Shown here: in pieces, positions 42,170-56,228 of the stretch
How positions within the stretch are numbered: the first letter of the stretch is position 1
Layout of the letters: each line of letters opens with the position of its first letter
Assembly (NCBI GenBank): GCA_035631515.1
Contig: DASQIP010000066.1
Coordinates: 738-64,737, forward strand
DNA length: 64,000 bases
Origin: Steroidobacteraceae bacterium
Lineage (GTDB): Bacteria > Pseudomonadota > Gammaproteobacteria > Steroidobacterales > Steroidobacteraceae
Reading direction: 5' to 3'
Made by a program: the position numbers and the translations under genes
Notes under the pieces: model-generated
What the model was told of the DNA's origin: nothing
What the model saw: only the letters and a program-made list of their open reading frames with translations
The model's database searches: none

Positions 42170-42741
42170 GGTTGCGGCAGCTCGCCACGCCCGCGGACTT
42201 CGAGCTGGCGGCGGGCTGGCTGCAGCGCAAAGAGAACCATCAGTGGCTGGATTTCGGCAGCAGCTGCCAGCGCATTACGCCCGCGCTGCTGCGGATCATG
42301 ACGCAGCGGGACACGCACTGTATCCGCTTCTATACCGCGCACGATGAGGATACCCCGCTCGGCATCGTGGCGCTCAGCAACGTCGACCGCAACATGCGCA
42401 CCGGCACTCTGTGGGGGATCGCCGGGGACAAGTCCTTCCGCCACCGCGGCTGGAGTCAGGTCGCGGCCTCACGCCTGTTGACGCTCGCATTCCAGGAGCT
42501 GGGGCTGCACTCGGTGAACACCTGGATCGTCGCCCACAACCCCTCGCAGCGCAGCGCCGCGCGCCTCGGGTTCCGCTACGTCGGCCGGCAGCGACAGTGC
42601 CACTTCATCGACGGCCGGGCCTACGACCGGCTGCTCTACGACCTGCTGGCGAGCGAGCATCGCGAGCTCGACCGTTACCCCCGGGCAGCCGCCCCGGGCC
42701 GCAGTCCCCGTGCAGCCCTCGAGGGCGTTATGGCGCTGTAA
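42166..42741 (+). CDS. GNAT-family N-acetyltransferase
   Basis: 191 aa with an acetyl-CoA-binding-like segment (FRHRGWSQVAASRLLTLAFQELGLHSV) and RimJ/RimL-type layout. ATGA overlap with the upstream stop. Confidence 0.7.
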   Translation: MRLRQLATPADFELAAGWLQRKENHQWLDFGSSCQRITPALLRIMTQRDTHCIRFYTAHDEDTPLGIVALSNVDRNMRTGTLWGIAGDKSFRHRGWSQVAASRLLTLAFQELGLHSVNTWIVAHNPSQRSAARLGFRYVGRQRQCHFIDGRAYDRLLYDLLASEHRELDRYPRAAAPGRSPRAALEGVMAL

Positions 42742-42922
42742 CGCGCCTTCCGCCCCCGTCCGGCTCCGCCGGCATAGTCCTTAGGAACTATGGCGCAGCT
42801 GCAAGTGCGCGGAGGCTTGGTATTGCAAGCTCGAACCTGAACGTAAGTCCGGCGCGGGCAGATCGGCGGCGCTCCGCGCGCCGGGCGTTCGTTGATCAGG
42901 GTTGCCAACGGCTGGAGCGTTG

Positions 42923-44530
42923 ATGACAGCGCCGAACGTCCTCTTGATCGGGCCGTACGATCCGCACTGCGGAGAGTACACATTCCTCGCTCCCCCGCTC
43001 GGGGTGTGGCGGCTCGCCGGTGTGCTCGAAGCCACGGGCACCACCGTCAAGGTGTTCGATCCGAACTGCTGCGCCGGCCCGGTTCACCGGGCGCTCGAGC
43101 GCGAGCTGCTGCGTTGCCCCTGGCACATCATCGGCGTCTCCACCACCGGCATGACGCTGCGCTTCGATCTGGAGCTCGCCCACCTGGCGCGCCGGCTGGC
43201 CCCGCGTGCGCTGCTGATCGCCGGAGGGATGGAGGCCACCTTCAGGCCCGAGCTCATGTTCCGGCTCGGTCCTTTCGATCGCGTCGTGCTCGGGGAGGGG
43301 GAGCGTCCGCTGCTCGAGATGGTGGCGCGGCTGCGCTCGGCGGCCCCGCTCGGCGGGATCAGCGGGACCGTGGAGCGCCGTGCCGACGGGCAGTGCCTCA
43401 GATTGCCGCAGCGCGCGCTCGGGCGCGAGGAGCTCCGGGACGCCATCTTCAGTACCCCCTACGCGCGCATGCCCTATGGCGCTTACTGGGAGCGGCTCGA
43501 GAAGGCCTATCGGGTCGGCGCCCTGCCCACCAAGGCCGCCCGCGAGGCGCTGCTCGCGGAGATCCGCTCGGTGCGGCTCATCACCCTCAATTACTGTCCG
43601 ATGGGCTGCAGCTTCTGCTCCTCGACGAACTTCCTGCACGAGGCCCAGGGGAGTGTCGCCGGCATCGCGCGCCTCGACGCCGACGAATGTGTGAGCATGC
43701 TCGGGCGCATCGTCGCCGCGCACCCCGGGGTGCGCACGGTGATCTTCCAGGACGACATCTTCGTGTTCACGCAGGATCGGCGCGTGCTGCCGCTGTGCGA
43801 GCGCATCGTCGCGGCCAAGGACAGCGGCGCACTGCCGCGCACGCTGCAGTTCATCAGCACCAATCGCGTCGATGCGATGACGCCCGAGCGGCTGACGGCC
43901 ATGCGCCGCGCCGGCTTTCGCGTGCTCGGCTTCGGGATCGAGAACTTCTCGCGCAATGTGCTCAGGGAATTCAACAAGGCCCGGATCTACGACCACATCG
44001 AGCCCATGCTGAGCGCCGCCTGCGGCCTCGGCATCACGCCGTTTCTGGACCTGATTCTGACCTCGCCGCGCGCGACGCTCGTCGACCTCGCCGAGACCCT
44101 GCGCCAGGCTTACCGCTGGCTGCAGCGCGGCTGCGAGGTGGGACTCTACCCCTACGTCATTCCGTTCTCGGGCGCGCCCATGGCGGCCGATCCGGCGCTC
44201 GCGCCCTTCACGGTCTGCCAGCGCCGCGAGATTGCCGGCACCGCGATTGCGTGGCAGCAGCCGGCCAAGATCCTGCCGATCGACCCGCTGCTGCGCGAGA
44301 CCATTCTGGCGATCGAGAGCGACGTCGAGGCGTTTCTCGCCCAGGCACAGGCGAACGCGGCCCATCTGCCTTCGCGTCTGCGCTCGCTCATCTGGATATC
44401 GTGCTCGCTGCGGCACATGGCCGAGCGGGGCATGCCGATTGCCGACGAGGATGAGGTACGCCGTGAGCTGGCCGCGCGGCTCCCGGCAGCGGGGCCGCAG
44501 CTCCCCGCGATGGGAGTCGCGAGCGCATGA
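42923..44530 (+). CDS. B12-binding-domain radical SAM enzyme
   Basis: N-terminal Rossmann-like cobalamin-binding-type domain (VLLIGPY...IIGVSTTG...LLIAGGMEAT...VVLGEGE) and a radical SAM cluster motif CPMGCSFC (CxxxCxxC) at nt 43595-43618. ATG at 42923; TTG at 42902 is the alternative. Confidence 0.8.
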   Translation: MTAPNVLLIGPYDPHCGEYTFLAPPLGVWRLAGVLEATGTTVKVFDPNCCAGPVHRALERELLRCPWHIIGVSTTGMTLRFDLELAHLARRLAPRALLIAGGMEATFRPELMFRLGPFDRVVLGEGERPLLEMVARLRSAAPLGGISGTVERRADGQCLRLPQRALGREELRDAIFSTPYARMPYGAYWERLEKAYRVGALPTKAAREALLAEIRSVRLITLNYCPMGCSFCSSTNFLHEAQGSVAGIARLDADECVSMLGRIVAAHPGVRTVIFQDDIFVFTQDRRVLPLCERIVAAKDSGALPRTLQFISTNRVDAMTPERLTAMRRAGFRVLGFGIENFSRNVLREFNKARIYDHIEPMLSAACGLGITPFLDLILTSPRATLVDLAETLRQAYRWLQRGCEVGLYPYVIPFSGAPMAADPALAPFTVCQRREIAGTAIAWQQPAKILPIDPLLRETILAIESDVEAFLAQAQANAAHLPSRLRSLIWISCSLRHMAERGMPIADEDEVRRELAARLPAAGPQLPAMGVASA

Positions 44531-45306
44531 GCTCCACCTACTGGGAAGACCGTGCGAGCCGCTTCGCCTCCAGCGGCGCGGGGCTCGGCGCCGTGTGCTC
44601 CTACGGGATGCCGGCGTTCTACAACCGGATGATCGACTGGTGTCAGCGCCTCGCGCTCGCAAGGTGGCTCGGCGTGCGTCCCGGCGCCCGCGTGCTCGAC
44701 GTGGGCTGCGGCGTCGGCCGCTGGAGTTGCCGGCTCGCGGCGCGCGGGGCGAGCGTCACCGGCGTCGACCTGAGTCGCACCATGATCGCGCAGGCGAAGC
44801 GGCGCGCCGCGGAGCAGGGCGTCGGCGCGCGCTGCCGATTCCTCGTACAGAACCTGGCCGCCCTGGAGGTGGAAGGGCAGTTTGATCTGATACTCGGCGT
44901 GACGGTGCTGCAGCACATTCTCGAGCCCGAGGCGCTGCGCTCGGCGGTGCAGCGCCTCGCGGCTCACCTGGCGCCGGACGGCACGCTGATTCTCCTGGAG
45001 GCGGCGCCGGCGCGCGCCGTCACGAGGTGCAATAGTGCGATCTTCGAGGCGCGTCCGCGCCTCGAGTATCGGCGGCTCTTCGCCGCCTGCGGCCTCACGG
45101 TGCAGGCCGTCACCGGAGTCGATCCGGCGCCGTTCAAGTCCTGGTTACTGCCGCTGCTGCCGCGGATGCCGCGCGCACTGCGAATGCCGGCGCTGGCGGT
45201 CATCACGCTGCTCTCGATCCCGATCGACGTGCCGTTCGGCCGGATCGCGCCCGGGCATTCGTGGCATGCCGTATTCGTCCTGAAGCGCGCGGAGGGACGG
45301 CCGTGA
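44527..45306 (+). CDS. class I SAM-dependent methyltransferase
   Basis: Motif I VLDVGCGVGRWS, then VTGVDLS, FDLILGVTVLQHI and DGTLILLE. ATGA overlap with the radical SAM stop. Confidence 0.85.
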   Translation: MSSTYWEDRASRFASSGAGLGAVCSYGMPAFYNRMIDWCQRLALARWLGVRPGARVLDVGCGVGRWSCRLAARGASVTGVDLSRTMIAQAKRRAAEQGVGARCRFLVQNLAALEVEGQFDLILGVTVLQHILEPEALRSAVQRLAAHLAPDGTLILLEAAPARAVTRCNSAIFEARPRLEYRRLFAACGLTVQAVTGVDPAPFKSWLLPLLPRMPRALRMPALAVITLLSIPIDVPFGRIAPGHSWHAVFVLKRAEGRP

Positions 45307-46556
45307 ACGCACAGCAACAGATCTGGTCTGCCGTCATTACCGCCACGGTGCTCGGCGTGGTGGCCGCCGGCAGCTGGTGGTACCACTCGCAGCATCCGGG
45401 CGCCGGCGCCGGTGCTGCGGACGTGACCGTGAGCGTCACCAACCCGGATGACATGGGGGCGGGGTCACTGCGGGAGGCGCTGTTCGTGGCCGCCTCCGCC
45501 AGAAGCCGGACCAGCGTGCTGATCGAGACGAGAAGGATTACGCTGAAGACCGCGCTGCCGCCGCTCATGAACCGCTACGGGCTGCGGCTGATCGCGCAGC
45601 CGGCGGGCGCCGAGATCGACGCGCATGCCCTGGCCGGCGGCGCGGTGCTCGATGTCGTCGGGCCCAACGCCTCGATCGAGGGCGTGGTCGTGCGCCATTG
45701 CCCCGGGGCGGCCGTGCTGCTGCGCGCGGCTCACTTTCACATGCGCGCCAGCCTGGTCGACTCCTGCGACGTCGGCGTCGAGATCGCCGCGAATGCGGCG
45801 GATGTGCTGCTCGAAGACAACCGCTTCGTGAATGACGGGGTCGGAGTGCGCTTCGGCGCCGCCAACCCCAACACGGCGGTGGTGCGTAACACCTTCACGC
45901 ACGCCACGGCGGCCGGGCTGTGGGCGGTGCGCGGGGACTCGGGCACGCCGGGCGAGGACGCCATTCATGTGCGCGACAACCGGTTCACCGACGACCATGC
46001 CGGCGTGGTCGCGGGCAACATACCGATCGTCGTCGAGCACAATGAATTCTCCGGCAACGCTCCGGAAGCCGCGGTGCATCTGATCGGCTCGAGCGGTGTG
46101 GTGCGCAACAACCGCATCGCCGGCCCGGCGCCCCTGGGGATCGTCGCGGAAAACGCCCGCGACGCGCTCATCGAGGGCAACGAGCTGCACGGACTGAGCT
46201 CCTACGCCATCATGCTGCGCAGCTCCGCCGGCGCCGTGGCGCGCGCAAATCGCATCGCGGATTGTGCCTCGGGACTCGCGTTCGTTCTCGGCGACCCGGA
46301 GCATCCCGGCAAGGCGATCGGCAATACCATCGTCGATGCCAGGCTCGACGCGATCGACGTCATCGGCGACTCGCCGATCCTCACGGACAACCAGGTGGTA
46401 CGCCCGCGCGCCCTGGCGCTGCGCGTCACGGACTACGCGCAGCCCGGGGGCCGGAATCTGCGCGCACACCCCTCCCTGCAGGGAAACAACTTCCGCGCCA
46501 ACACGGTCGGCACGATGCCGGTCGAGCCCACGACCGCGGCGGTCGGCCGGCCATGA
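45303..46556 (+). CDS. membrane-anchored right-handed parallel beta-helix repeat protein (NosD/CASH-like)
   Basis: N-terminal TM (IWSAVITATVLGVVAAGSWWY), then at least 8 PbH1-like repeats (NRFVNDGVGVRF, VRNTFTHATAAGLWAV, VRDNRFTDDHAGVVAG, VEHNEFSG, VRNNRIAG, IEGNELHG, ARANRIAD, IGNTIVD). GTGA overlap with the upstream stop. Confidence 0.75.
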   Translation: MNAQQQIWSAVITATVLGVVAAGSWWYHSQHPGAGAGAADVTVSVTNPDDMGAGSLREALFVAASARSRTSVLIETRRITLKTALPPLMNRYGLRLIAQPAGAEIDAHALAGGAVLDVVGPNASIEGVVVRHCPGAAVLLRAAHFHMRASLVDSCDVGVEIAANAADVLLEDNRFVNDGVGVRFGAANPNTAVVRNTFTHATAAGLWAVRGDSGTPGEDAIHVRDNRFTDDHAGVVAGNIPIVVEHNEFSGNAPEAAVHLIGSSGVVRNNRIAGPAPLGIVAENARDALIEGNELHGLSSYAIMLRSSAGAVARANRIADCASGLAFVLGDPEHPGKAIGNTIVDARLDAIDVIGDSPILTDNQVVRPRALALRVTDYAQPGGRNLRAHPSLQGNNFRANTVGTMPVEPTTAAVGRP

Positions 46557-47998
46557 CGGACCGCAACCCGACCCAGATCCTGCCGGTTTACAACTGGCTC
46601 GATCCGCGCGCGCATCCGCTCGGGGATACCTGGCTGCTCACCATCTTCGCGATCCTGCTGGCGATCGGCCTGCCGCGCGTCGTCGGCGGTCTCACGATCG
46701 ACTTCGCGGTTTGTGCGCTCGGCCTGCTGACGCTCGGGGTGATTCACGTCGGCTTCGCCGTCGTCGCCGCACGCCTCGGCACCCGGCCGCAGCTGCGCAC
46801 GCGGCTGCTCACCGCCCTGCATCTGCTCGGCGTCCTGACCGTCGCCTTCATCTGGCAGCGGGCCGGAGGACTGCAGAACCCCGTGCTGCTCGCGGTGTTC
46901 GTGCTGCCGGTCATCGGCGCCGTCTTCATCTCGCGCTGGCAGGCGTATGTCACGGCGGCGCTCGCGGTCTTTGCGGTGATGGCGCTCGCCTCGGGACAGG
47001 CGCCGTCGCTGACGGAACCCCACTGGTTCGTGCCGGGCCTGCGGGCGGCGGCCGGCTGGCTGAGCTCCGCAGCCCGGCTGGCGGGTGACGGCGAGCGGCC
47101 GTTCGCCGCCTTCTATGCGCCCGCGGGCTACTACGCCGCGCTGCTGCAGGTATTCGCGGTCGTGTTGTTCGGCTGCGCGGTGGCCGCGGAGTACGTGCGC
47201 ACGGTCTTCGATCGGCTGAACGCCCAGCTGGCCATGGCCCGCAGCGAGACGTTGCGCAGCCGTGGGCTCTGGTCGGCGCTGGTGGAGGAGCTGCCGCTGC
47301 CGGCGGCGCTCGTCGACACCGACACTCACGAAATTCTCTGCGCGAGCGCCCTCGCCGTCGGCGTCTGGGGCGCAGGCGGGGAGGCCATCAACGGGCGGGG
47401 CTTCTTCGAGGTAGTGCGGTTCTCGTACCCGGAAGCGATCGAGGCGCTGATCGACGGGCGCGACGGAGTCGAGCCGCTCAGCATGGTGCGCATGGGCGGG
47501 CAGCTGCTCGCCACCGAGGTGCGTGTACGGCACGTCGCCCAGGATGGGCGCCGCCTCGCGCTCGTTACCGTCAGCGACACGACCGAGGCCTTCTGCGTAC
47601 GAGCGACCCTGGATGCGGCCGAGCACGCGGCGCTGATCGTCAACGCCTCCGGCCGCGTGCTCGCCCTCAACAGACCCGCCCGCGCGGTGTTTCCCGAGGC
47701 ACAGCCCGGCGCGGAAATCTCCAAACTCGCGCCGGAGGCCGGTGGCGGACTGGCCTGGTGGGACCCGGGAATGAGCCGGCGCAAGAAGATGCATCTGACC
47801 GTGGCGCGGCGCGTCTACCAGGTCACGGCTACCGCGGTCGCGCTGCCCGGCGAGGAGGAACGGCTGTACGTAGTCGCGTTCGCGCCGACGTCGACTTTCG
47901 CGGGCTGGGATCGCAGCGGCACGGTGCGCGCGGCGGCCGTCGCCGGCGGGGATCTCGACACCACCATGCTGACCGCCGTGAGGCGGAGGCGAACGTGA
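46553..47998 (+). CDS. polytopic membrane protein with two PAS-like cytoplasmic domains and no output domain
   Basis: About 6 TMs in the first 250 aa, then two PAS-like blocks (LPLPAALVDTDTHEILCAS..., AEHAALIVNASGRVLALNRPA...). No H-box, GGDEF, EAL or HTH recognised. ATGA overlap with the upstream stop. Confidence 0.65.
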   Translation: MTDRNPTQILPVYNWLDPRAHPLGDTWLLTIFAILLAIGLPRVVGGLTIDFAVCALGLLTLGVIHVGFAVVAARLGTRPQLRTRLLTALHLLGVLTVAFIWQRAGGLQNPVLLAVFVLPVIGAVFISRWQAYVTAALAVFAVMALASGQAPSLTEPHWFVPGLRAAAGWLSSAARLAGDGERPFAAFYAPAGYYAALLQVFAVVLFGCAVAAEYVRTVFDRLNAQLAMARSETLRSRGLWSALVEELPLPAALVDTDTHEILCASALAVGVWGAGGEAINGRGFFEVVRFSYPEAIEALIDGRDGVEPLSMVRMGGQLLATEVRVRHVAQDGRRLALVTVSDTTEAFCVRATLDAAEHAALIVNASGRVLALNRPARAVFPEAQPGAEISKLAPEAGGGLAWWDPGMSRRKKMHLTVARRVYQVTATAVALPGEEERLYVVAFAPTSTFAGWDRSGTVRAAAVAGGDLDTTMLTAVRRRRT

Positions 47999-48825
47999 AG
48001 GCGCGGGCGCCGGCGATCGCTTTGATCCTGCTGGCGTGCGCGCGGCAGGCGGCGGTGGCGGACCAGGCGCAGCTGCCGCCCGCGCCGGCCTCCGCCGGCG
48101 AGGATCGCCTGCTCTTCAGCGCGGACGGTGGCTGGCTCACCGGCGGCAGCGGCGCCGGCGGCGCCTCGGCACTGTGGTCGCACACCTTCGCGCCGCGGGA
48201 CGTGATCAACGTGGGCGCCGAGTACGAGCAGGTTGCCAATTCGCATTGGACGAACGGAATTCTCAGCGGCTCCTTCGGGCTGGGGAGCGGCACATCCGCC
48301 CCGGCGATCTACTTCGACGCTCATGAAGGCGCGGGCGATCTGGCGTCGCGCAGTTTCAGGTACTCGGTGGTCACGGTGGGACTGCTCGATGCGCCGACCC
48401 AATGGCTGACCGTGCAGCTGGAGGAGCGGCGCATCGACGTCGACACGAGCCACGGCAACCTGCCGAAGCTCAGTCTGTCGTTCCGCGTGGCGCAGCCGCT
48501 GCTGCTGTCTGCGTCTTATGCGGATTCCGCGGGCGGCAATCTGGGCACGCAGCTCGCTGCTTTACGCGTCGACTACGTCGGACAGGCGTCTACGGCCCTC
48601 GCCGGAGCGGCCCACGGCCGCGCCGCACCGGCCGTTCTCAACCTGCAGGGTCAGATCGTGCAACCCAGCCCGACGCTGACGGAGGTGTTCGCCGGCGCCG
48701 GGCACTCCTTCGGCCGCGCCGACTGGAAGCTGCTCGCGGACTACCAGGACATCGAGGGCTTCAAACGCACCACCATCACGTTGCTGTGCACGCTGCATCT
48801 CGATGAGCACGGTCGCTCGCCATGA
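47995..48825 (+). CDS. small secreted beta-rich protein, candidate outer-membrane beta-barrel (possibly YaiO-like)
   Basis: GTG start in a GTGA overlap. Signal peptide VKARAPAIALILLACARQAAVA, then an alternating-hydrophobicity strand pattern with G/S/D turns. The family assignment is speculative. Confidence 0.45.
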   Translation: MKARAPAIALILLACARQAAVADQAQLPPAPASAGEDRLLFSADGGWLTGGSGAGGASALWSHTFAPRDVINVGAEYEQVANSHWTNGILSGSFGLGSGTSAPAIYFDAHEGAGDLASRSFRYSVVTVGLLDAPTQWLTVQLEERRIDVDTSHGNLPKLSLSFRVAQPLLLSASYADSAGGNLGTQLAALRVDYVGQASTALAGAAHGRAAPAVLNLQGQIVQPSPTLTEVFAGAGHSFGRADWKLLADYQDIEGFKRTTITLLCTLHLDEHGRSP

Positions 48826-51233
48826 AGCTCGACGCGTACAAGGGCTACCCGTCCTGGATTCCGGCCGCCGCGGTCGGGGCCGTGGTAGTGCTCGCCGGCG
48901 CGCGCCTCATCACCCTGAGCGTGCGCGATCACGCCGCGCAGCTGCACAGCGCCGCTCAGGCCGCAGTCCTGCAACAGACGCAGGCGATCGACGTGCAACT
49001 GCAGGCGCTTCTCGAGCGTGCGCGCAGCGAGGCGCGCCGCGCCGCCGGCGCGGTCGCGGAGGGCGTCCCGTCGCGCGATGCCTTCTGGGTTTCGGGCACC
49101 GGCGTCCTGCTGCGCAGTGCAGACCCCGACCCGGCCGTCAGCCGCGCCCTGGCGAGCGAATGGGCAGCCGCGCAGCACGCCGCGCCCCCGGCAGCGGGAC
49201 TCTTCGGCCCGGTCCGCTACGGCAGCCGGTGGTTCGTGGCGGCGCAGCAGCCGGTCGGTCTGCGGCAGTCAGGCGCGGCGCCGGCCGGCGCGCGCGCATT
49301 TGCCTACGAGGGCCTCGATGGGCTGCTGCTGCGGGCCGGGTTCGCGCGGCTCGCCCGCGAGGGCTACGATTTCGAGCTGCGCGAGCACGAGCCGGGCTCA
49401 GGCGTGCGCCGGGTGTTCCTCAGCTCACGCGCCGGGACGCTCGCGGAGCCGGTGACGGGCGCAATCCATCCGCTGGGCGCTGCATCGACTGGGCAGCCCG
49501 CCTATCTGGAGCTGGCCATCCAGCCCCGCGCTGGCTGGTACCCGATCGGGCCGCTAGCCGCCGACATCGCCGTGCTGGTCCTGCTCGCCTGGGCACTCGC
49601 ATTCGGCGCCTACGATCTTGCTTACAGCGTGCGCCGCACCAGGCGCGCGCTCGCGAACGCCCGCGCGCGCCTGAGCGTCGTCCACGCGCGCCTCACGGCG
49701 GAAATCGAGCAGCACGATGCCCTGCAGAAGAATCTCGAGCACGCCCGCTACCACGACCCCTCCACCGGGTTGCCGAATCGCCGCTACTTCATGAGCCAGG
49801 TCGACCGGGCGCTGCGCGATCTGCACGCGCGGCGGCGGCAGCGCCTCGCGATTGCACTCATCGAGATCGACCGCTTCGCGCTCATCAACGATACGCTCGG
49901 CCACACTGCCGGGGATGATCTGGTGCTGCAGGTCGCGCAGCGCTTCGCCAAGGTGCTCGAGTCGAAAGAGCATACGCTGGCGCGCTGGAGCGGCGATCAG
50001 TGCGCGGCCTTGCTCTACGACGTCGATTCCGCCGAGGTACGCGCCATCGCCGCGGCGCTGCACGGCACGCGTCAGCAGCCGCTCTCACTGCGCAAGCACC
50101 GCGTCAAGGTCGCGACGCGCATCGGGTTCACGTCCATCGCACGCAGCCTGCACCGTCCGGAGGAGGCGCTGCGCGAAGCCGACGTCGCCTTGTCGGTGGC
50201 CAAGGGCGAGTCGGGCCTCGACACGGTCGAGTACACCCCGGACATGGGCGGCGCGGCGGTGAGCCTGGTCAGCCTCGAGGCGGATCTGTACCTGGCGCTC
50301 GAGCGCGGGGAATTCGGCCTGCTGTTCCAGCCCATATTCGAGCTGCGCGGACCGCGGGTAGTGGGCTTCGAGGCGCTGCTGCGCTGGCATCATCCCGTGG
50401 AGGGGACACTGACGCCGGATCGGTTCCTCGCCATCGCGGATGAGGCCGGCGTGACCGTGCCCGTTACGCGCTGGATCGTCCAAAGGGTCTGCAGGCTCAT
50501 CGCCGACTGGCGCGCCAGCCTGCGGCGGGACGCCGATTTCTACATCAGCGTCAATCTCTCGGCGGCGGCCCTGCACGACCCGGGATTGTGCGAGCACGTC
50601 GCCCAGGTGCTGCGCGACACGCACGTCCCGCCGGGTTACCTCAAGTTCGAGCTCGCCGAGCGCGGCCTGGTCGAGAACGTGAGCGCCGCGCGTGCGGTGA
50701 CGGCCGGATTCCACGATCTGGGCGTCGAGCTGATGCTGGATGATTTCGGAACCGGCTATTCATCCCTCAGCTATCTGCAGCTGCTGCCGTTCGACTATGT
50801 GAAGATCGATCGGCCGTTCGCCAACCGGACGGGATCGGAGCGCGCCAACAACGCCATTACCGGCGCCGTATTGCAGATGACCTCGAGCCTCGGGCTGCGC
50901 GCCATCGCCGAGGTAGTGGAAAGCGAGGCGGCGGCACGCGCGCTCGGTGAGCTCGGCTGCAACTTTGCGCAGGGCTACTACTTCTCCGAACCGCTCGAAG
51001 CGGCGGACGCCTTCGAGCTCCTGCGGAGCTCTCCGGGCGTGTCGACGGTGGTTACGCCCGGCCCGGGCGCCGCCGCGCCGCGCACCGCCGGCGCGGGGGA
51101 CCAGACGATGGTGATCGAGGACTCGCCCACGCTGGCACTGCCGGACACGCCCACTCTCGTGCTGCAGGCTCCGATCGATCCCGAGATCGCGGTCACGGAA
51201 GAGCAGGACGCCGGCAAGCGCTCGGGAGGCTGA
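48822..51233 (+). CDS. membrane GGDEF-EAL protein with periplasmic sensor domain (degenerate GGDEF, intact EAL)
   Basis: TM1, a ~220-aa periplasmic region and TM2. The GGDEF domain starts at STGLPNRRYF, but the active-site position reads SGDQC (nt 49989-50003). The EAL domain has EALLRW (nt 50370-50378), NLS, ELAE, DDFGTGYSS and KID. ATGA overlap with the upstream stop. Confidence 0.85.
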   Translation: MKLDAYKGYPSWIPAAAVGAVVVLAGARLITLSVRDHAAQLHSAAQAAVLQQTQAIDVQLQALLERARSEARRAAGAVAEGVPSRDAFWVSGTGVLLRSADPDPAVSRALASEWAAAQHAAPPAAGLFGPVRYGSRWFVAAQQPVGLRQSGAAPAGARAFAYEGLDGLLLRAGFARLAREGYDFELREHEPGSGVRRVFLSSRAGTLAEPVTGAIHPLGAASTGQPAYLELAIQPRAGWYPIGPLAADIAVLVLLAWALAFGAYDLAYSVRRTRRALANARARLSVVHARLTAEIEQHDALQKNLEHARYHDPSTGLPNRRYFMSQVDRALRDLHARRRQRLAIALIEIDRFALINDTLGHTAGDDLVLQVAQRFAKVLESKEHTLARWSGDQCAALLYDVDSAEVRAIAAALHGTRQQPLSLRKHRVKVATRIGFTSIARSLHRPEEALREADVALSVAKGESGLDTVEYTPDMGGAAVSLVSLEADLYLALERGEFGLLFQPIFELRGPRVVGFEALLRWHHPVEGTLTPDRFLAIADEAGVTVPVTRWIVQRVCRLIADWRASLRRDADFYISVNLSAAALHDPGLCEHVAQVLRDTHVPPGYLKFELAERGLVENVSAARAVTAGFHDLGVELMLDDFGTGYSSLSYLQLLPFDYVKIDRPFANRTGSERANNAITGAVLQMTSSLGLRAIAEVVESEAAARALGELGCNFAQGYYFSEPLEAADAFELLRSSPGVSTVVTPGPGAAAPRTAGAGDQTMVIEDSPTLALPDTPTLVLQAPIDPEIAVTEEQDAGKRSGG

Positions 51234-51237
51234 GCAT

Positions 51238-52671
51238 ATGAGCGTGAGCGTCAGACGCCCGTGGAACCTGCTGGTGCCCATCGGCGTCTACGCGCTGCTC
51301 GCCGTGTGGATTGCGCTCACCTCGGCCGAGTTCGACGCCGGCAACTTCTCGTTCCTGATCTACGGCGTGGCGAACATCATCGTGTTCACGGACGCGGTGG
51401 ACTTCGGCGTGCGCCTGTACGCGCACCGCCGGCACACCGCGGCTTCGGCGGGCCGGGGCACGGCGGACTGCGGCCTGCTCTCGGTCGATCTGCCGTCTCT
51501 GGGAAGGCCGTTCATCGGCAGAGCGCGCGCCCGTCCTTTCGCGATCGTCGCTTCGATATTCAATCTCGAAGACGGCATCGAGCAATTCATGGCGCGGCTG
51601 GCGCCCTACCGGGAGCACGTCTGGCTCATCAGCGATGGCTCCACCGACCAGACGGTCCAGCGCCTGCACCAGGCGGGTTGGCGCTGCCTGGAGGAGGAGG
51701 TGAATCGCCGCAAGCCGGGCGCGCTGCGGCGGCTGCTGGCGACCCTGCCGGCGCGCATCGAGACCGTCATGGTCATCGACCCGGACGTCAGAATCTGCTC
51801 GCGCCGTGAAGGCAGTGCCGTCGATCTTGAGCGCGTCGTGGCGGACCTGCAGCAGTCCGGCGCGGCGGCGGCGTGCCCGCGCGTCGAGATGGAGCGCGAC
51901 GGGCTGCTCGGGCGATTCCAGGCATTGGAGTACGCGCTGACGTTCGTCGTCGGGCGGCGCAGCATGGCCGACTACGGCGTGACTTCCGGGGTCTCCATTT
52001 ACCGCCGGGACGCGCTCGAGCACGCGCTCGCGCGCCATTCACTGTCGGTCTATGCCGAGGACCTCGAGACCGCGCTCATCCTGCTCAACGACGGCGAGCG
52101 CATCTACTACGACGGCCGCCTGGTGGTGAGCACCGACCGGCCGAACTCGTTTCGCCACTGGTTCTCGCAGCGCGTCGGCTGGTATCACGGACTGCTGCGG
52201 GTCTATACGGAACGCCTCCCCGAGCTGTGGCGGGTCGGCCGGCGCGACCCGTTCGCGATGTACAACTACATCGGCTACCTCGGCGTGCTCGGACTCGGCC
52301 TGCACGCGCTCAAGCTCGTGAGCGCGGCGCTGCTGTCCGTGAGCGTCGCGGCGATCTTCGACAACCTGTTCGTCCTGCACCTGCTGCCCTACGCCGGGAT
52401 GGTCAATCCCGTGTACTTCGTCGGCGCCTCCGTGAGCTATCTCGGGCTCGGCTCGCTCGCGCTGTTCACCGTCGTGCCGCATCGCGACCGCGCCTACATT
52501 GCCCCGATCCTGCCGATCTACTTCATCTACGTACTGCTGCACCTGGTGCCGATCACGCTCGGGTTCGCCAACTGGGTGGCGCTCAAGCTGTGGCACCGCC
52601 GGGTGTTCCGCGATCACTACCAGTCGCACGAGGACGTCCCGAGTCTCTACGGCGCGCTGTATCGGCCATGA
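51238..52671 (+). CDS. membrane-embedded family-2 glycosyltransferase (processive synthase type)
   Basis: Two N-terminal TMs, GT-A domain (ISDGSTDQT, VIDPDV, AEDLE), a Q-R-V-G-W variant of the QxxRW processivity motif (nt 52168-52182), then about 4 C-terminal TMs. Confidence 0.8.
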   Translation: MSVSVRRPWNLLVPIGVYALLAVWIALTSAEFDAGNFSFLIYGVANIIVFTDAVDFGVRLYAHRRHTAASAGRGTADCGLLSVDLPSLGRPFIGRARARPFAIVASIFNLEDGIEQFMARLAPYREHVWLISDGSTDQTVQRLHQAGWRCLEEEVNRRKPGALRRLLATLPARIETVMVIDPDVRICSRREGSAVDLERVVADLQQSGAAAACPRVEMERDGLLGRFQALEYALTFVVGRRSMADYGVTSGVSIYRRDALEHALARHSLSVYAEDLETALILLNDGERIYYDGRLVVSTDRPNSFRHWFSQRVGWYHGLLRVYTERLPELWRVGRRDPFAMYNYIGYLGVLGLGLHALKLVSAALLSVSVAAIFDNLFVLHLLPYAGMVNPVYFVGASVSYLGLGSLALFTVVPHRDRAYIAPILPIYFIYVLLHLVPITLGFANWVALKLWHRRVFRDHYQSHEDVPSLYGALYRP

Positions 52672-53642
52672 TGCTCACGGACTGCCGCGGCTGGCTGCCG
52701 GACGGCAAGCAGGCGGCCGTGTGCTTCAGTATCGACGATGTCCATCCGGCAGGCTCGGCGGATGCGTTCGATGCGGGCGGAGATCTCGGCCGCGGTGCCC
52801 TGGGCCGCGTCGAGCGGCTGCTCGAGCGTCACCCGCGGCTGCGCATCACGATGTTCGTCACGCCCGACTGGCGGCGGGTGGAGCTGGTCAGGACCCGCAA
52901 GTGGTTGACACGCGTTCCGCTGCTGCGTGAGCGCATCCACTGGGCACCCCTCGCGCCCAGAGGGCGTTTTCGCATCGACCGGTTCCCGGACTTCGTCGCC
53001 TACCTGAACGCGCTGCCGCGCACCGATTGCGCCATACATGGCCTGCATCACGCCCACCCGGGGCCGCGGCTCGCCACGGAATTCCAGGGACAGTCGCGCC
53101 GCAGGTGCCGCGCACTGGTGCAGGAGGCCCGGCGGATCTTCGTCGCCGCCGGGCTCAGGCACGTCCCGGGCTTCGCAGCGCCGGCCTGGAATACGCCTCC
53201 CGCGCTCTGTGCGGCCCTCGGCGACGAGGAATTTCGCTTCGTGGCTTCGGCACGTGACCTCGATACCCCGGTGAGCGCCGGGGCGCGCACGGCCGGCCAC
53301 GGGCTGCGCGGCGCCTCGCTCATTCACCCGACCTGGATTGCGGGCGCGCCCGCGCACGAGCCCGCGGCTGCGGCCCGGCGACTGGTGCACTTCACCACGA
53401 ACTTTCAGGCGACTTCGACGCTCGAGCGTGCCCACGCCATCATCGAGGCCGGCGGCCTGCTCTTCATCAAGGCGCACGTCTTCAAGAAGGGTGGCGGGAT
53501 CACCATGCTCGACGGACTCGACGACGACTACTGCGCCTACCTGGAGCGGCTGTGGCGCGAGCTCCATCGCCGCTATGGCGATGCTCTGTGGTGGACCTCG
53601 CTCGATGAGGTAGCGAACCGATGCCGGGCGCTGGCGAACTGA
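52668..53642 (+). CDS. polysaccharide deacetylase-like protein (DUF2334-type)
   Basis: CFSIDDVHP near the N-terminus, TMFVTPDW and HGLHHAH histidine clusters consistent with deacetylase-fold metal sites. No signal peptide. ATGA overlap with the GT2 stop. Confidence 0.55.
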   Translation: MMLTDCRGWLPDGKQAAVCFSIDDVHPAGSADAFDAGGDLGRGALGRVERLLERHPRLRITMFVTPDWRRVELVRTRKWLTRVPLLRERIHWAPLAPRGRFRIDRFPDFVAYLNALPRTDCAIHGLHHAHPGPRLATEFQGQSRRRCRALVQEARRIFVAAGLRHVPGFAAPAWNTPPALCAALGDEEFRFVASARDLDTPVSAGARTAGHGLRGASLIHPTWIAGAPAHEPAAAARRLVHFTTNFQATSTLERAHAIIEAGGLLFIKAHVFKKGGGITMLDGLDDDYCAYLERLWRELHRRYGDALWWTSLDEVANRCRALAN

Positions 53643-54559
53643 GGATTCTCGTCAATCCGGAGGATCGCGAGGCCGAGGTCGGCCCGGCATTTCTGACCCG
53701 GTGTTTCGCCGCCCGCTGGACCGAGGCGATGTACCGCTGGTACCTGCAGCGTCCTTTCGCCGGTGAGCTTCCCGACCGGCTGATATTGACGGAGGGCGGG
53801 CGCGCGGTGGCGGCGTGCGGCGTGGTCTATCGGCAGCTGCGCACCCAGGATGGGGAGGTGCATCGGGTCGGCATCGCACTCGCCGCCGCTACGCTGCCCA
53901 GCGCGCGCGGCCGCGGTTGCTACGCACGCGTGCTGCGGGCGACGGCGGAGCGGAGTGCGGCCCGCGGTTGTGCCGCGCTGCTCGGCTTCGTCACCGCGGA
54001 TAACACCTCGGGGCGGGGGCTCGCGCGCCTCGGGGCCACGGCCATCCCGAGCGCCTACATCGTGTCGCGCGCTCGCTCAGCCGGTCCGCCGGCGGGCCTG
54101 CTGCAGCTGCGGGACGCGCGGGCGGCGGACGACTGGCCGCTGCGCGCTGCGGCGCGCGTGCGCCCACCGGCGGCGCCAGCCGGGTTCCACTACCCCGACG
54201 CGAGTGCCTGGCGCTCGCAGCTGGTGGATCGCCCGGATGGGGTGCAGACACTGCGCATCGGGGCCACGTGCCGTGCCGTGATCGAGCGGGTTGCCGACAC
54301 CGATCGCCTGCAATGGCTCGACGGCGATGGGCGCGAGCGCGTGGCCGCCATCCGTGCCGTCGTGGAGTGCGCACGGCGCCGCGGGCGTAAGTTCTTCATG
54401 TTCTCGACCTGCCCGCACGAGACGGCGGCGGCGCGCCGCCTCGGACTCGCGGCGCATCCCGGATACATGCTGGTCCTGCCGCTGCAACCAGCGTATGCCT
54501 CCGCGGTGCGCGGCTGGGCGGGCATGTCCTGGCGCGTGCAGTCCGGAGACCGGATGTAG
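53621..54559 (+). CDS. GNAT-fold acetyltransferase-like protein
   Basis: 312 aa. Central segment IALAAATLPSARGRGCYARVLRATAERSAARG resembles the GNAT acetyl-CoA-binding Q/R-x-x-G-x-G/A motif. Overlaps the upstream gene by 22 nt. Confidence 0.55.
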   Translation: MPGAGELRILVNPEDREAEVGPAFLTRCFAARWTEAMYRWYLQRPFAGELPDRLILTEGGRAVAACGVVYRQLRTQDGEVHRVGIALAAATLPSARGRGCYARVLRATAERSAARGCAALLGFVTADNTSGRGLARLGATAIPSAYIVSRARSAGPPAGLLQLRDARAADDWPLRAAARVRPPAAPAGFHYPDASAWRSQLVDRPDGVQTLRIGATCRAVIERVADTDRLQWLDGDGRERVAAIRAVVECARRRGRKFFMFSTCPHETAAARRLGLAAHPGYMLVLPLQPAYASAVRGWAGMSWRVQSGDRM

Positions 54560-54561
54560 TC

Positions 54562-55395
54562 ATGAGCCGGACGCGCTGCGGCCGCGAGTACCTGTCGGCA
54601 GCCGGCTGCGCGGTGGCCGCGGCTCTGCTCGCGGCAGCGGCGCCGGCTGCCGGCGGCTCCGAGGACTCCACCCCCGCGGCTTTTTCCTGCACGCTGTCGA
54701 GCTCCTGGAGGAGCTGCGGATTCGCAGCGCAGGCGAAGTCGTCCGATCGCATCACGGAGGTCGAGGTTGCGGGTGTGCCCGGCGTGCGCCTCGAAACGAT
54801 GCCGGGGGACGAGCGCATCGCCGGCAGCGGCCGCGCCGAACGCGCAGACCTCGCCCTGTCGCCGGAGGAGACCGGCTGCTCCCAGGGCGCCGAGCAGTGG
54901 TGGACGCACGCGCTGCTCTTCCCCGATGACTACACTCCGCCGCGCGCCACGGCGGCGGACTCCTGGCCGTGGGGCGTGGTCTTCGACTTTCATCAGACGG
55001 GCTCCGAGGGCCAGGCCAACTTCGAGATCGACGTCGTCGGCAAGCCTCCCGGGATGCAGTTCGCGATCTCCGCAGGGCCGGTGGTCTCGAACGGGGCGCC
55101 CGGCTCGCCGACCCGGATATTCCCCGTGGGCCCCATAATAAAGAATCACTGGTACCGCTTCGTCTACCACATCCGCTGGTCGTCCGGGCGCGATGGCTTT
55201 TTCGACGCCTGGGTCGACGGCCGGCGGGCGCTCGACTACCGCGGGCCCACGCTGTACGCGGGGCAGGCCTGTTACCTGAAGCTCGCCAACTACCACACGC
55301 CCGTCGGGAGCCCGGTGGCCGTCGTGCACGCGCAACTCAAGCGCGCGGCGACCCGGGAGGCGCTCGGCCTGACGTCCGTGGAGCGCGCTCAGTGA
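54562..55395 (+). CDS. secreted polysaccharide lyase (concanavalin-fold, heparin-lyase-I/PL-like)
   Basis: Signal or lipoprotein-like N-terminus (LSAAGCAVAAALLAAAAP). WWTHALLFPDDY, VFDFHQ and NHWYRFVYHIRWSSGRDGFFDAWVDGRRALDYRGPTLY match the pattern I associate with the generic 'polysaccharide lyase' jelly-roll family. Confidence 0.55.
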   Translation: MSRTRCGREYLSAAGCAVAAALLAAAAPAAGGSEDSTPAAFSCTLSSSWRSCGFAAQAKSSDRITEVEVAGVPGVRLETMPGDERIAGSGRAERADLALSPEETGCSQGAEQWWTHALLFPDDYTPPRATAADSWPWGVVFDFHQTGSEGQANFEIDVVGKPPGMQFAISAGPVVSNGAPGSPTRIFPVGPIIKNHWYRFVYHIRWSSGRDGFFDAWVDGRRALDYRGPTLYAGQACYLKLANYHTPVGSPVAVVHAQLKRAATREALGLTSVERAQ

Positions 55396-56213: not shown

Positions 56214-56228
56214 GAGCTGCTCCTCATC

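Follow-up and report, generated by a model that had tools for sequence, protein, structure and literature searches.

A lineage-specific gene cassette of Steroidobacteraceae that most likely builds and exports a chemically tailored glycan

What do ten tightly packed genes make when a membrane glycosyltransferase shares them with a B12 radical enzyme and c-di-GMP proteins, and do all ten belong together? The genes (g1 to g10) lie on the forward strand at 42923-55395 of a 64,000-nucleotide window, the whole stretch of DNA analysed, from a soil gammaproteobacterium of the family Steroidobacteraceae. All ten reading frames are intact with their stops as described, and a third-position GC of 0.84-0.90 in each of them is strong coding evidence (the window GC is mostly 66-73%, and that of the operon 69-71%). 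The layout and all nine junctions are those given in the earlier note: ATGA at 44527 (g1/g2), 46553 (g3/g4), 48822 (g5/g6), and 52668 (g7/g8), GTGA at 45303 (g2/g3) and 47995 (g4/g5), a 22-nt overlap at 53621 (g8/g9), and gaps of 4 nt at 51234-51237 (g6/g7) and 2 nt before 54562 (g9/g10). The sole gap longer than 4 nt in the unit is the 181-nt leader upstream of g1 (42742..42922, forward strand), the presumed promoter region, in which no match to the sigma-70 consensus and no Rfam riboswitch was found. A GGAG-like Shine-Dalgarno sequence lies 7 nt 5' of the g1 ATG (42923), and the 3' end of g10 overlaps a convergent methyltransferase gene (55389-56213, reverse strand) by 7 nt. Almost all of the domain assignments made earlier hold in Pfam. 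We lean, slightly, towards synthase-dependent secretion of a glycan that is tailored by radical SAM and methyl chemistry and tuned by c-di-GMP.

Co-conservation of the neighbourhood had been set beforehand as a test of the grouping, and it was found across 63 eligible loci outside this genome, metagenomes included. Cultured carriers of the cassette include Steroidobacter agaridevorans, S. gossypii, S. flavus, and Peristeroidobacter soli. Five genes (g1, g2, g3, g4, and g7) are present in all 63 loci, while g5 and g6 are each present in 60. Recurrence of the gene set in 63/63 loci indicates that the grouping is not due to chance. The co-evolving unit is seven genes (g1, g7, g2, g3, g4, g5, and g6), not ten: the proposed ten-gene operon stands as a co-conserved set, but g8 and g9 are clade-specific and g10 occurs in one other locus. 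Two gene orders have been observed, and in the commonest the GT2 gene (g7) directly follows the radical SAM gene (g1) through an ATGA overlap. The order in the window is a minority arrangement, and its ten-gene co-linear layout is found only in the closest subclade. The neighbours of the cassette differ between genomes, so that it behaves as an autonomous module. A deep second clade carries the same cassette, with 43-46% identity for the GT2 and 61-65% for the radical SAM enzyme. A distant lineage keeps only the GT2, the methyltransferase, and the radical SAM enzyme, with no barrel, beta-helix, or c-di-GMP genes nearby. The radical SAM/methyltransferase "front end" is therefore not an add-on; together with the GT2, it is the ancestral core. 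Such an ancestral trio needs no export apparatus, and the trio-only lineage is a point against a secreted glycan.

The GT2 glycosyltransferase g7 (51238..52671; 477 aa) has its GT-A domain between two N-terminal and about four C-terminal TM helices, in agreement with the flanking TM bundles reported before. The motifs SDGSTD, DPD, YAED, and SQRVGW are invariant in the family, as are the D, DxD, ED, and Q-R-x-G-W signatures. QRVGW stands in place of QxxRW, with the arginine replaced by an invariant glycine. In known synthases this arginine contacts the UDP diphosphate, and its loss also counts against a secreted glycan. The best NCBIfam family of g7 is PgaC_IcaA (E 1e-13), where it scores 50.8 bits against a cutoff of 422. 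As a PgaC or CelA equivalog, g7 fails both thresholds, which upholds the view that this is not an already characterised system. Hyaluronan synthase is the sole PDB sequence match (0.003), and its QQTRW aligns with QRVGW. The AlphaFold model (pTM 0.67, overall pLDDT 63.6) is well defined in the GT-A core (pLDDT 80-94) and of low confidence in the TM region, a further point against secretion. Hyaluronan synthases, followed by BcsA and chitin synthases, make up almost all of the top 20 Foldseek matches (E 3e-10 to 1e-7). By predicted fold and motifs, g7 belongs to the processive hyaluronan synthase/PgaC/BcsA/chitin synthase class, within the limit that Foldseek cannot tell polymer synthases from lipid glycosyltransferases whose structures may not have been solved. 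Another match is the cyclic glucan synthase Cgs (E ~6e-6 to 9e-6). This bears on a very improbable alternative in which the GT2, like OpgH or Cgs, produces a glucan-like oligosaccharide of the periplasm, osmoregulated or cyclic, that is kept in the envelope and decorated by the tailoring enzymes. The hyaluronan, cellulose, and chitin synthases all rank far above Cgs.

The earlier assignments of g1 and g2 have been confirmed by Pfam. The cytoplasmic radical SAM enzyme g1 (42923..44530; 535 aa) has a cobalamin-binding domain (B12-binding 52.3 bits, Radical_SAM 40.3 bits) and an invariant C225-x3-C229-x2-C232 motif, and with 59-84% identity to its relatives across loci it is the most conserved core gene. 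Its best solved relatives are AprD4 (1.6e-6), TokK, and OxsB, and it reaches no equivalog cutoff in NCBIfam. The core gene g2 (44527..45306; 259 aa) encodes a class I SAM-dependent methyltransferase (Methyltransf_25 83.8 bits) with a hydrophobic C-terminal segment. Its best NCBIfam matches, CpaM, BchM, CFA synthase, and NodS, are all far under cutoff.

These enzymes bear on the main rival to a secreted glycan, which we consider unlikely: that the product is not a secreted polymer of high molecular weight but a modified glycolipid, lipo-oligosaccharide, or glycosylated small molecule. In that case g7 would transfer a single sugar or a few to an acceptor in the membrane, g1 and g2 would modify the lipid, aglycone, or sugar, and the barrel and beta-helix proteins would serve transport or turnover of the product. 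Hopanoids and ether lipids are well-known substrates of B12-radical SAM enzymes, and the hydrophobic segment of g2, together with its matches to the NodS and cyclopropane-fatty-acid-synthase families (E 1e-11 to 1e-14), is consistent with such a role. A weak match of g7 to the mycofactocin glycosyltransferase MftF (E 9e-7, NCBIfam) and the distant trio, with no envelope or signalling genes nearby, point the same way. However, the HpnJ score is 26 bits against a cutoff of 578, the NodS equivalog score is 43.5 bits against 300, and the methyltransferase matches are generic for class I. The best family of g7 is PgaC/IcaA, with no match to the NCBIfam models for HpnI, HpnB, GT21, or NodC at E <= 0.01. 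Taken together, a periplasmic beta-helix protein, a barrel in the outer membrane, a number of c-di-GMP enzymes, and the secreted lyase of the subclade are the signature of an exopolysaccharide system.

The first envelope component, g3 (45303..46556; 417 aa), is a core protein anchored in the inner membrane by a TM segment (7-25), with a periplasmic right-handed beta-helix of the CASH type (Beta_helix 74 bits, NosD 61 bits), as the earlier description of a TM-anchored parallel beta-helix had it. Searched with the family profile, the PDB yields weak matches to the Vi-antigen lyase VexL (0.014) and a polysaccharide lyase (0.026). The second, g5 (47995..48825; 276 aa), core in most lineages, had been described as a small secreted beta-rich protein; it has a signal peptide and is predicted to form an outer-membrane beta-barrel of about 14 strands. 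It matches no Pfam family, and all of its 278 homologues are annotated 'hypothetical'. The AlphaFold model (pLDDT 81.5, pTM 0.75) has 14-15 long antiparallel strands, and its top Foldseek matches are to OmpG (TM-score 0.59-0.66). Known EPS porins, at 16-18 strands, are larger than the predicted barrel. This small size counts against a secreted glycan, as does the absence of g5 from two of the three second-clade loci. For a product retained in the periplasm, g3 could be a glucan-modifying enzyme, and the lack of a TPR scaffold in the window is consistent with this. On the other hand, a dedicated outer-membrane barrel is kept in 60 of the 63 loci, and, to our knowledge, loci for periplasmic glucans are not known for a secreted lyase or for dense c-di-GMP signalling.

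Two further core genes encode signalling proteins. The polytopic membrane protein g4 (46553..47998; 481 aa; 6-7 TM) has a PAS-fold region on the cytoplasmic side and lacks an output domain. PAS is weak in the window protein (E 0.0066) and is matched by 18 of 39 family members (best 2.7e-8), so the earlier assignment holds at the family level; no relative of g4 was found in the PDB. The membrane protein g6 (48822..51233; 803 aa) has a periplasmic domain between TM segments 16-34 and 245-263, a degenerate GGDEF (SGDQC; 110.8 bits), and an intact EAL (234.6 bits). Motif analysis of 64 homologues bears out the degenerate GGDEF-EAL assignment: the GGDEF motif is always (S/G)GDQ(F/L/C) with no RxxD, and E-x-L, N, ExxE, DDFGTG, KID, and QG are kept in nearly all. 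The retained EAL catalytic motifs and the lost cyclase motif predict phosphodiesterase activity for g6, and the link of the cassette to c-di-GMP would therefore be through turnover. No c-di-GMP receptor was found (no PilZ match, no I-site), which is another point against the secreted glycan. In the second clade, a REC-GGDEF-EAL gene and a PAS histidine kinase with a REC-HD-GYP gene adjoin the cassette, and a distant low-GC relative of the GT2 adjoins a REC-GGDEF-HD-GYP gene.

The clade-specific g8 (52668..53642; 324 aa) encodes a DUF2334/deacetylase-superfamily-like protein. The proposed similarity to DUF2334 stands at 24.2 bits, just below the 26-bit cutoff, and a DUF2334 match is on record for the homologues in L001 and L002. 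Residues D23, D24, H26, and H124-x3-H128-x-H130 are invariant, and no relative was found in the PDB. No signal peptide is predicted, and the proposed analogy to Pga fails: PgaB is a periplasmic deacetylase, whereas g8 is cytoplasmic, which is more typical of glycolipid or Nod-factor deacetylases than of EPS deacetylases. The cytoplasmic location of g8 counts against a secreted glycan. Its single NCBIfam match, to N-acetylglucosaminyl-phosphatidylglycerol deacetylase, is not significant (E 0.0054) and, with the missing signal peptide, favours the glycolipid. The accessory g9 (53621..54559; 312 aa) is the GNAT-like acyltransferase noted before, with weak Pfam matches to Acetyltransf_9 and Acetyltransf_1 (E 8e-4 to 2.5e-3). 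For a glycolipid, g8 and g9 would re-acylate an amino sugar following the logic of Nod factors (NodC/NodB/NodA/NodS) or hopanoids (HpnI/HpnK/HpnJ), but both are missing from most carriers. They are always paired, occur in 8 of the 63 loci, mostly on the opposite strand in relatives, and share the 22-nt overlap in the relatives checked (L001 and L002). The third accessory, g10 (54562..55395; 277 aa), is a secreted polysaccharide lyase, as proposed (Polysacc_lyase PF14099, 63.8 bits, over cutoff), and in the PDB it weakly matches glucuronan lyase A (E 0.013). This subclade-specific addition is nearly unique to the subclade of the window, with a homologue near the cassette in 1 of the 63 loci (L006).

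In this genome the operon sits within a separate Wzx/Wzy polysaccharide cluster. A full set lies upstream of it, at ~22-43 kb of the window (Bac_transf, Wza, Wzz/GNVR, Wzy, flippase, GT4, heparinase II/III, methyltransferase, UGDH, and GNAT), with further GT4, GNAT, and methyltransferase genes downstream, and this context is common only to the nearest relatives (L006-L008). Together with the sparse distribution of g8, g9, and g10, this is consistent with a quite improbable reading in which the ten genes are not one unit: a seven-gene cassette landed in the cluster, and between one and three genes at its end (g10, possibly g8/g9) serve that neighbouring pathway, which has a UDP-glucose dehydrogenase, heparinase-like lyase, GT4s, methyltransferases, and GNATs of its own. 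Their co-transcription with the cassette would then be a mere accident of position. Against this, g8/g9 directly adjoin the GT2, on either strand, in 19 loci among the first 83 inspected (duplicate contigs counted), including genomes with no surrounding Wzy cluster (e.g., L001, L002, L010-L018, and L059), and the short junctions in the window (4, 22, and 2 nt) imply that translation is coupled. The L006 copy of g10 sits at the opposite end of the cassette, immediately upstream of g1, indicating that it moved with the cassette and not with the flanking genes. Its attachment at two different positions has been counted in favour of the lyase belonging to the glycan machine.

Of the signature subunits of known systems, the earlier note recognised no PilZ, PgaD-like, or TPR component, and Pfam likewise detects none in the ten products. 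In Steroidobacter sensu stricto, a gene for TPR repeats and a BBP2_2 barrel immediately precedes g1, which favours export. The parallel drawn with E. coli yaiO-yaiP-yaiS is functional at most, since g5 and g8 have no similarity to YaiO and YaiS, respectively, and g7 is 24% identical to YaiP over the GT-A core only. The combination of a synthase, a B12 radical enzyme, a methyltransferase, an outer-membrane pore, and c-di-GMP proteins matches no characterised polysaccharide secretion system.

We infer that the product is an exopolysaccharide. For this secreted glycan, g7 would polymerise a nucleotide sugar on the cytoplasmic side of the membrane and thread the chain through its own TM channel. 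The sugar or nascent chain would be modified in the cytoplasm by g1 (candidate chemistry: C-methylation, deoxygenation, or rearrangement by a radical route) and g2 (O- or N-methylation), which may be tightly tied to the synthase, as the g1/g7 overlap in the commonest order suggests. In the periplasm, g3 may process or guide the chain like an AlgG-type epimerase or a lyase, and g5 would provide the outer-membrane exit. Local c-di-GMP levels would be set by an inner-membrane sensory module of g4 and g6, in which the phosphodiesterase may be gated by its own periplasmic domain and the degenerate GGDEF domain. In this clade, g8/g9 may exchange one N-acyl group on an amino sugar for another, and g10 would add a secreted lyase to the transcription unit. 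Overall, the cassette is specific to the Steroidobacteraceae lineage, and its proteins most likely form a synthase-dependent machine that spans the envelope and both produces and exports a glycan with chemical tailoring.

Ten open reading frames, g1 to g10, occupy 42923-55395 of the window, all on the plus strand and uninterrupted, as expected from the earlier note, which had described a ten-gene same-strand operon. The third-position GC of each (0.84-0.90) is that expected of real genes at this GC, which is mostly 66-73% in the window and 69-71% over the operon. Exactly as originally described, six of the nine junctions are 4-nt overlaps (ATGA or GTGA) and one is an overlap of 22 nt, the remaining two being gaps of 4 and 2 nt. 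The sole sizeable non-coding stretch of the operon is a 181-nt leader 5' of g1, which shows no consensus promoter and a chance-level sRNA match (E 0.29); no Rfam family reaches the gathering threshold anywhere in the window, and internal promoters and terminators are not more numerous in the operon than in shuffled sequence. At the distal end, g10 and a convergent methyltransferase gene (55389-56213, minus strand) overlap by 7 nt, at the stop codon of the one and the end of the other. The operon is real, non-random, and uncharacterised, and a literature search found no description of the genes it shares with its relatives.

Pfam assigns B12-binding and radical SAM domains to g1, with an invariant CxxxCxxC motif, and a class I SAM methyltransferase domain to g2. 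The g3 product has an N-terminal transmembrane (TM) anchor followed by a right-handed beta-helix (Pfam Beta_helix/NosD). In g4, 6-7 TM helices precede a PAS region that is marginal in the window's protein (E 0.0066) and solid in the family, where it is found in 18 of 39 members (best 2.7e-8). The 276-aa g5 product matches no family; it has a signal peptide, and its AlphaFold model (pLDDT 81.5, pTM 0.75) is an outer-membrane barrel of ~14 strands, the nearest structures by Foldseek being those of OmpG (TM-score 0.59-0.66). Two TM helices around a ~210-aa periplasmic domain, followed by GGDEF and EAL domains, make up g6, and g7 is a membrane GT2. The DUF2334-like g8 scores 24.2 bits against a 26-bit cutoff and carries the invariant pattern DD..H and HxxxHxH. 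Because g8 is without a signal peptide it is predicted to be cytoplasmic, and the PgaB-like deacetylase parallel drawn in the earlier note has to be given up. A weak GNAT match (Pfam) is found for g9, and g10 is a secreted PF14099 polysaccharide lyase (63.8 bits) with a faint match to glucuronan lyase. Sequence and profile searches of the PDB give nothing usable for g4 or g8 and weak matches only for g3 and g10.

In the GTDB set, 217 species-level genomes carry the GT2 family of g7. The best 80 of these 217 have mostly Steroidobacteraceae or unclassified Gammaproteobacteria labels, with a few other MAG labels, and include cultured Steroidobacter and Peristeroidobacter strains. All ten proteins were searched by tblastn against 83 loci from genomes or contigs and an independent 80 from metagenomes, and 63 loci were long enough to judge. 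The neighbourhood proved to be conserved, g1, g2, g3, g4, and g7 being present at all 63 of these loci and g5 and g6 at 60, while g8 and g9 are present at 8/63 and g10 at 1/63. The commonest order, g1-g7-g2-g3-g4-g5-g6, in which an ATGA overlap joins g1 to g7, is seen at 53 of the 63 loci, and the order of the window, with the GT2 last, at seven. The up- and downstream neighbours are otherwise unrelated between genomes. Together, the pattern of gene presence and the varying neighbours identify a seven-gene cassette, g1 to g7, as the evolutionary unit. The proposal of a ten-gene system therefore holds in that the genes are co-conserved and uncharacterised, but the conserved unit is seven genes, and the co-linear arrangement of all ten is derived and specific to the closest subclade. 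Cultured carriers of the cassette include Steroidobacter agaridevorans SA29-B (L076), S. gossypii S1-65 (L024), S. flavus (L032), and Peristeroidobacter soli JW-3 (L037). A conserved regulator upstream of g1 was also considered and rejected, since the neighbour varies: a REC-GerE gene is found in a few loci and a TPR-barrel gene in Steroidobacter sensu stricto only.

The three genes outside the cassette have different histories. Wherever they occur, g8 and g9 are paired and adjoin the GT2 gene, on the opposite strand in most relatives. Outside the window g10 is found only in L006, the locus of a near relative, and there it flanks the cassette on the other side. In the window the cassette sits within a separate Wzx/Wzy-type polysaccharide cluster, a point on which the earlier note needs correction. 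The complete cluster lies directly upstream (18900-42741). It begins with a hybrid histidine kinase (18900-20765), a REC-GerE regulator (20776-21438), an OmpR-type response regulator (21549-22250), a Bac_transf initiating transferase (22308-23714, minus strand), a GerE regulator (23852-24739), and a well-supported 600-aa ORF with no Pfam family (26442-28244, minus strand, GC3 0.81). These are followed by Wza (28356-29213), Wzz/GNVR (29214-30506), Wzy (31356-32891), a MurJ/Wzx-like flippase (32456-34402), a GT4 (35211-36629), a heparinase II/III-like lyase (36598-38649), a methyltransferase (38710-39621), a UDP-glucose dehydrogenase (39366-40931), and a GNAT (40906-42741). Downstream, a convergent polysaccharide-type block on the minus strand (55389-60308) starts with the methyltransferase that overlaps g10 and continues with a 328-aa protein with no Pfam family (57008-57994, GC3 0.90), a GT4 (57975-59135), and a GNAT (59208-60308). 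The last three genes (57008-60308) adjoin the cassette elsewhere only in L006-L008, the loci of the nearest relatives, to which the flanking Wzx/Wzy context is likewise restricted. These surroundings raise the possibility that g10, perhaps along with g8 and g9, belongs functionally to the neighbouring pathway, so that the operon would be composite in its last genes only. That g10 is attached to the cassette on the opposite side in L006 speaks for its moving together with the cassette, and a composite operon is considered rather improbable.

Further upstream, ~32 kb from the cassette, the window carries a GGDEF-like gene (7276-8019, minus strand), a CHASE3 histidine kinase (8024-9574), and a REC-GerE regulator (10139-10795, minus strand). 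The genes of this group (7276-10795) show 30-38% identity to GGDEF and REC-GerE genes located directly upstream of the cassette in two related loci, L001 and L002.

The best curated family for g7 is PgaC/IcaA (TIGR03937, E 1e-13), but its score of 50.8 bits against a cutoff of 422.3 bits indicates that g7 is not PgaC. By sequence profile, the only PDB relative is hyaluronan synthase (E 0.003). The AlphaFold model (pTM 0.67) has a confident GT-A core and low-confidence TM helices; helices are placed at residues 9-30, 37-72, 338-377, 391-411, and 415-452, and the chain ends ~25 residues past the last TM helix. In Foldseek searches with this model, the Chlorella virus and Xenopus hyaluronan synthases are closest, followed by BcsA and the chitin synthases. 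The motifs SDGSTD, DPD, YAED, and SQRVGW are invariant, as are the acidic residues D133, D181-x-D183, and E274-D275, which form the D, DxD, and ED motifs. As modelled, g7 appears to combine a GT-A domain with flanking TM helices in the manner of the processive GT2 synthases (HAS/BcsA/Chs/PgaC/NodC class). It departs from the canonical Q(Q/R)xRW motif, having instead QRVGW, which is invariant in 64 sequences. SQRVGW aligns with QQTRW of HAS1, so that the conserved arginine is replaced by glycine throughout the g7 family. Relatives down to ~30% identity follow the pattern Q-R-x-(G/W/S)-W, with glycine in six of eight inspected sequences and W or S in the other two. The occurrence of QRxGW for QxxRW across a GT2 family with members in low-GC bacteria and in a cluster labelled as methanogen MAGs bears on donor binding. 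A PilZ-like RxxxR in the conserved C-terminal tail of g7 (RRVFRDHY) was dropped as a candidate because second-tier relatives do not keep it.

In structure, the g7 model thus most closely resembles the class I hyaluronan synthases (Cv-HAS and vertebrate HAS1; E 3e-10, full-length TM-score ~0.5). They are ~480-570 aa long, a size similar to that of g7, and share with it TM helices on either side of the GT-A domain and the D/DxD/ED motifs. A hyaluronan synthase both polymerises and translocates its product as one protein, and the modelled architecture of g7 is similar. On the other hand, identity between the two is 13-15%, and QxxRW is replaced by the invariant QRVGW. Hyaluronan synthases also act by themselves, whereas g7 always has a B12-radical SAM protein and a methyltransferase as companions and, in the window, periplasmic, outer-membrane, and c-di-GMP partners as well.

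Both domains of g1 score above their thresholds (PF02310, 52.3 versus 32.1 bits; PF04055, 40.3 versus 29.5 bits), and the cluster cysteines C225, C229, and C232 are invariant. With both domains and CxxxCxxC, g1 is predicted to belong to the cobalamin-binding-domain radical SAM superfamily, and it shares these features with members that act on carbohydrates and natural products (AprD4, TokK, OxsB, GenK-type). The nearest solved relatives are AprD4, TokK, and OxsB, each matched weakly and over one domain (E 1e-6 to 1e-3), and g1 nears no NCBIfam equivalog cutoff (best 60 versus 750 bits). AprD4 is an aminoglycoside sugar 3'-dehydratase, and TokK and OxsB are B12 methylases; from these relatives, the g1 reaction could be C-methylation, deoxygenation, or rearrangement. 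To our knowledge, no radical SAM enzyme of this kind has been described as constantly associated with a membrane polysaccharide synthase, and none was found in the literature searched.

The association of g1 and g2 with the synthase extends well beyond the nearest relatives. A deeper clade (L085-L087), one member cluster of which is also annotated Steroidobacteraceae, carries the same cassette, with GT2 proteins 43-46% and radical SAM proteins 61-65% identical to those of the window; the barrel gene g5 is detectable in L086 alone of the three. In L085 and L086 a pair of genes for a ~260-aa protein and a hexapeptide-repeat acyltransferase adjoins the cassette. The ~260-aa protein, taken by eye for a CE4 deacetylase analogous to g8/g9, finds no support as such in profile-profile comparison with g8, Pfam, or the PDB. 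A more distant locus (L095:6708-10527, GC 0.63) has only the GT2 (33%), methyltransferase (38%), and radical SAM (31% identity) genes, as a three-gene unit flanked by AddAB-like helicase-nuclease genes, a zinc-ribbon protein, and DUF5996, with no envelope or c-di-GMP genes nearby. This conservation, including the distant trio, argues that the radical SAM and methyltransferase proteins are ancestral partners of the synthase and not an add-on; what the earlier note had called a front end is part of the core. The stand-alone trio also bears on the nature of the product, which could be a modified glycolipid or oligoglycoside instead of a polymer. Such a product would fit the cytoplasmic g8, the generic NodS and CFA-synthase-like matches of g2, and the low-confidence TM portion of the g7 model, but is considered unlikely, and secretion of a tailored polymer is the reading we prefer.

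Distant GT2 relatives include a cluster annotated Methanobacteriaceae. Another distant family member, P0289 (1129 aa), is a fusion with its GT2 at ~756-1124; its long N-terminal region is lysine- and proline-rich, and the first ~100 residues look Roadblock/LC7-like by eye.

In g6 the EAL domain scores 234.6 bits and has all of E-x-L, N, E-x-x-E, DDFGTG, K-x-D, E, and Q-G, as do nearly all of its 63 homologues. The GGDEF site reads SGDQC in g6 and (S/G)GDQ(F/L/C) or further variants in the family; the second acidic residue is never present (64 homologues), and an I-site RxxD upstream of the degenerate motif is absent from g6 and its 63 homologues. The residues of an EAL c-di-GMP phosphodiesterase are thus in place, and those of an intact GG(D/E)EF cyclase are not. 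From its residues, g6 is predicted to be catalytically active as a c-di-GMP phosphodiesterase, with its pseudo-cyclase domain in a regulatory role. The proposed link to c-di-GMP therefore stands through the degenerate GGDEF-EAL protein, but its nature is corrected to that of a predicted phosphodiesterase without an I-site or PilZ. Among the loci of the deeper clade, a PAS histidine kinase and a REC-HD-GYP regulator lie downstream of the cassette in 3/3 and a REC-GGDEF-EAL gene lies upstream in two (L085, L086). In a 33%-GC bacterium (L097:202-3088), a GT2 29% identical to g7 is convergent with a REC-GGDEF-HD-GYP response regulator. These neighbours indicate that linkage to c-di-GMP enzymes has recurred independently.

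Only a small number of synthase-dependent exopolysaccharide systems have been characterised, among them those for cellulose, alginate, PNAG, and Pel. The PgaABCD/IcaADBC system shares with the operon its logic of a membrane GT2, an outer-membrane beta-barrel, a deacetylase-superfamily protein, and c-di-GMP dependence. However, no PgaD or TPR match is found in any of the ten products, and g5 is a ~14-strand barrel without TPR, whereas PgaA consists of a TPR region and a 16-strand porin. PgaB is a periplasmic CE4 lipoprotein, unlike the cytoplasmic g8, which lies outside the conserved core, and neither a radical SAM enzyme nor a methyltransferase, beta-helix protein, or phosphodiesterase is part of Pga. 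Some lineages may add a PgaA/BcsC-like scaffold or scaffold-porin, since in Steroidobacter and Peristeroidobacter sensu stricto a gene for a ~511-aa TPR and BBP2_2 barrel protein lies directly upstream of the g1 homologue (L032:6720-8255, with equivalents in L024, L028, L030, L031, L037, L039, L050, and L076); the window has no counterpart of it.

Like the operon, the alginate system brings together a membrane GT2, a right-handed beta-helix protein in the periplasm (the C5-epimerase AlgG), a barrel in the outer membrane, a lyase, and control by c-di-GMP. Here too the parts differ. No PilZ domain of the Alg44 or BcsA type matches in the ten products, which, with the lack of PgaD and TPR matches in Pfam, agrees with the original failure to recognise these subunits. 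The operon encodes no TPR lipoprotein like AlgK, AlgE has 18 strands to the ~14 of g5 and ranks 38th in Foldseek (TM-score 0.39), and g10 belongs to PF14099, not to the AlgL/Alginate_lyase family. Only generic Beta_helix/NosD repeats link AlgG and g3, whose best PDB profile matches are lyases (E 0.01-0.03). Alginate is tailored by O-acetylation and epimerisation, not by radical SAM or methyl chemistry. The known exopolysaccharide porins are larger than the g5 barrel.

The remaining systems are further removed. Against the CelA model (TIGR03030), g7 scores 15.5 bits versus 699, well short of a BcsA equivalog; with the PgaC and CelA cutoffs both missed by a wide margin, the view that the operon is not orthologous to a characterised system is upheld. 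Pel uses a cytosolic GT4 (PelF), whereas the synthase here is a membrane GT2, and PelD binds c-di-GMP at the RxxD I-site of a degenerate GGDEF domain, which g6 is without. No NodC model is among the g7 NCBIfam matches at E <= 0.01; the NodS equivalog gives g2 43.5 bits versus 300, and Pfam NodS (48.7 bits) is one of its 20 generic methyltransferase matches. The hopanoid model HpnJ (TIGR03471) scores 26.2 versus 577.6 bits, and no HpnI or HpnB model is among the g7 matches. Identity with Pga, Bcs, Alg, Pel, NodC, or Hpn components was rejected on the curated Pfam and NCBIfam cutoffs. By annotation, the E. coli genes yaiO-yaiP-yaiS, also uncharacterised, nominally supply the same three functions (outer-membrane barrel, GT2, and putative deacetylase), and the earlier note had named them as a similar trio. 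Homology was not borne out, with E > 1 between g5 and YaiO, no match between g8 and YaiS, and 24% identity over 194 aa between g7 and YaiP, within the generic GT-A core. Judged by their sequences, the two are not homologous systems. In function, the operon is closest to Pga and alginate, and in synthase fold to the hyaluronan synthases, and it belongs to none of these systems. The earlier note's reading is largely right, with six points corrected.

Synthase-dependent secretion of a tailored glycan, tuned by c-di-GMP, is on balance the best explanation, held with a slight lean in its favour. The modelled g7 would polymerise and translocate the glycan, and g1 and g2 would tailor the sugar or the chain in the cytoplasm. 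In the periplasm the chain may be handled by g3, whose weak PDB matches are polysaccharide lyases, and the barrel modelled for g5 would provide the outer-membrane exit; a periplasmic glucan as the product is regarded as very improbable. Finally, g4 and g6 would form a sensory module that sets local c-di-GMP.

We propose, more tentatively, that this may be the first synthase-dependent polysaccharide secretion system with an obligatory B12-radical SAM enzyme and methyltransferase. The trio would be ancient, extending from Gammaproteobacteria to distant lineages, and would make a radical-modified glycan (with C-methyl, deoxy, or rearranged sugars) that leaves through a new kind of minimal 14-strand porin, under the control of an inner-membrane module not described before, in which a PAS-membrane protein and a trigger phosphodiesterase replace a PilZ or I-site receptor. 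It would be a fifth kind of system, and each known one has been instructive on polymer translocation and c-di-GMP control. Its accessory parts are without detectable homology to those of the known systems, and a radical SAM enzyme is unprecedented in such machinery, so the product may carry sugar chemistry new to matrix polysaccharides. Cassette-bearing Steroidobacteraceae MAGs recur in soil metagenomes, and the product may therefore matter for soil aggregation and root-associated biofilms. The cultured Steroidobacter and Peristeroidobacter carriers make both the product and the radical chemistry directly testable.
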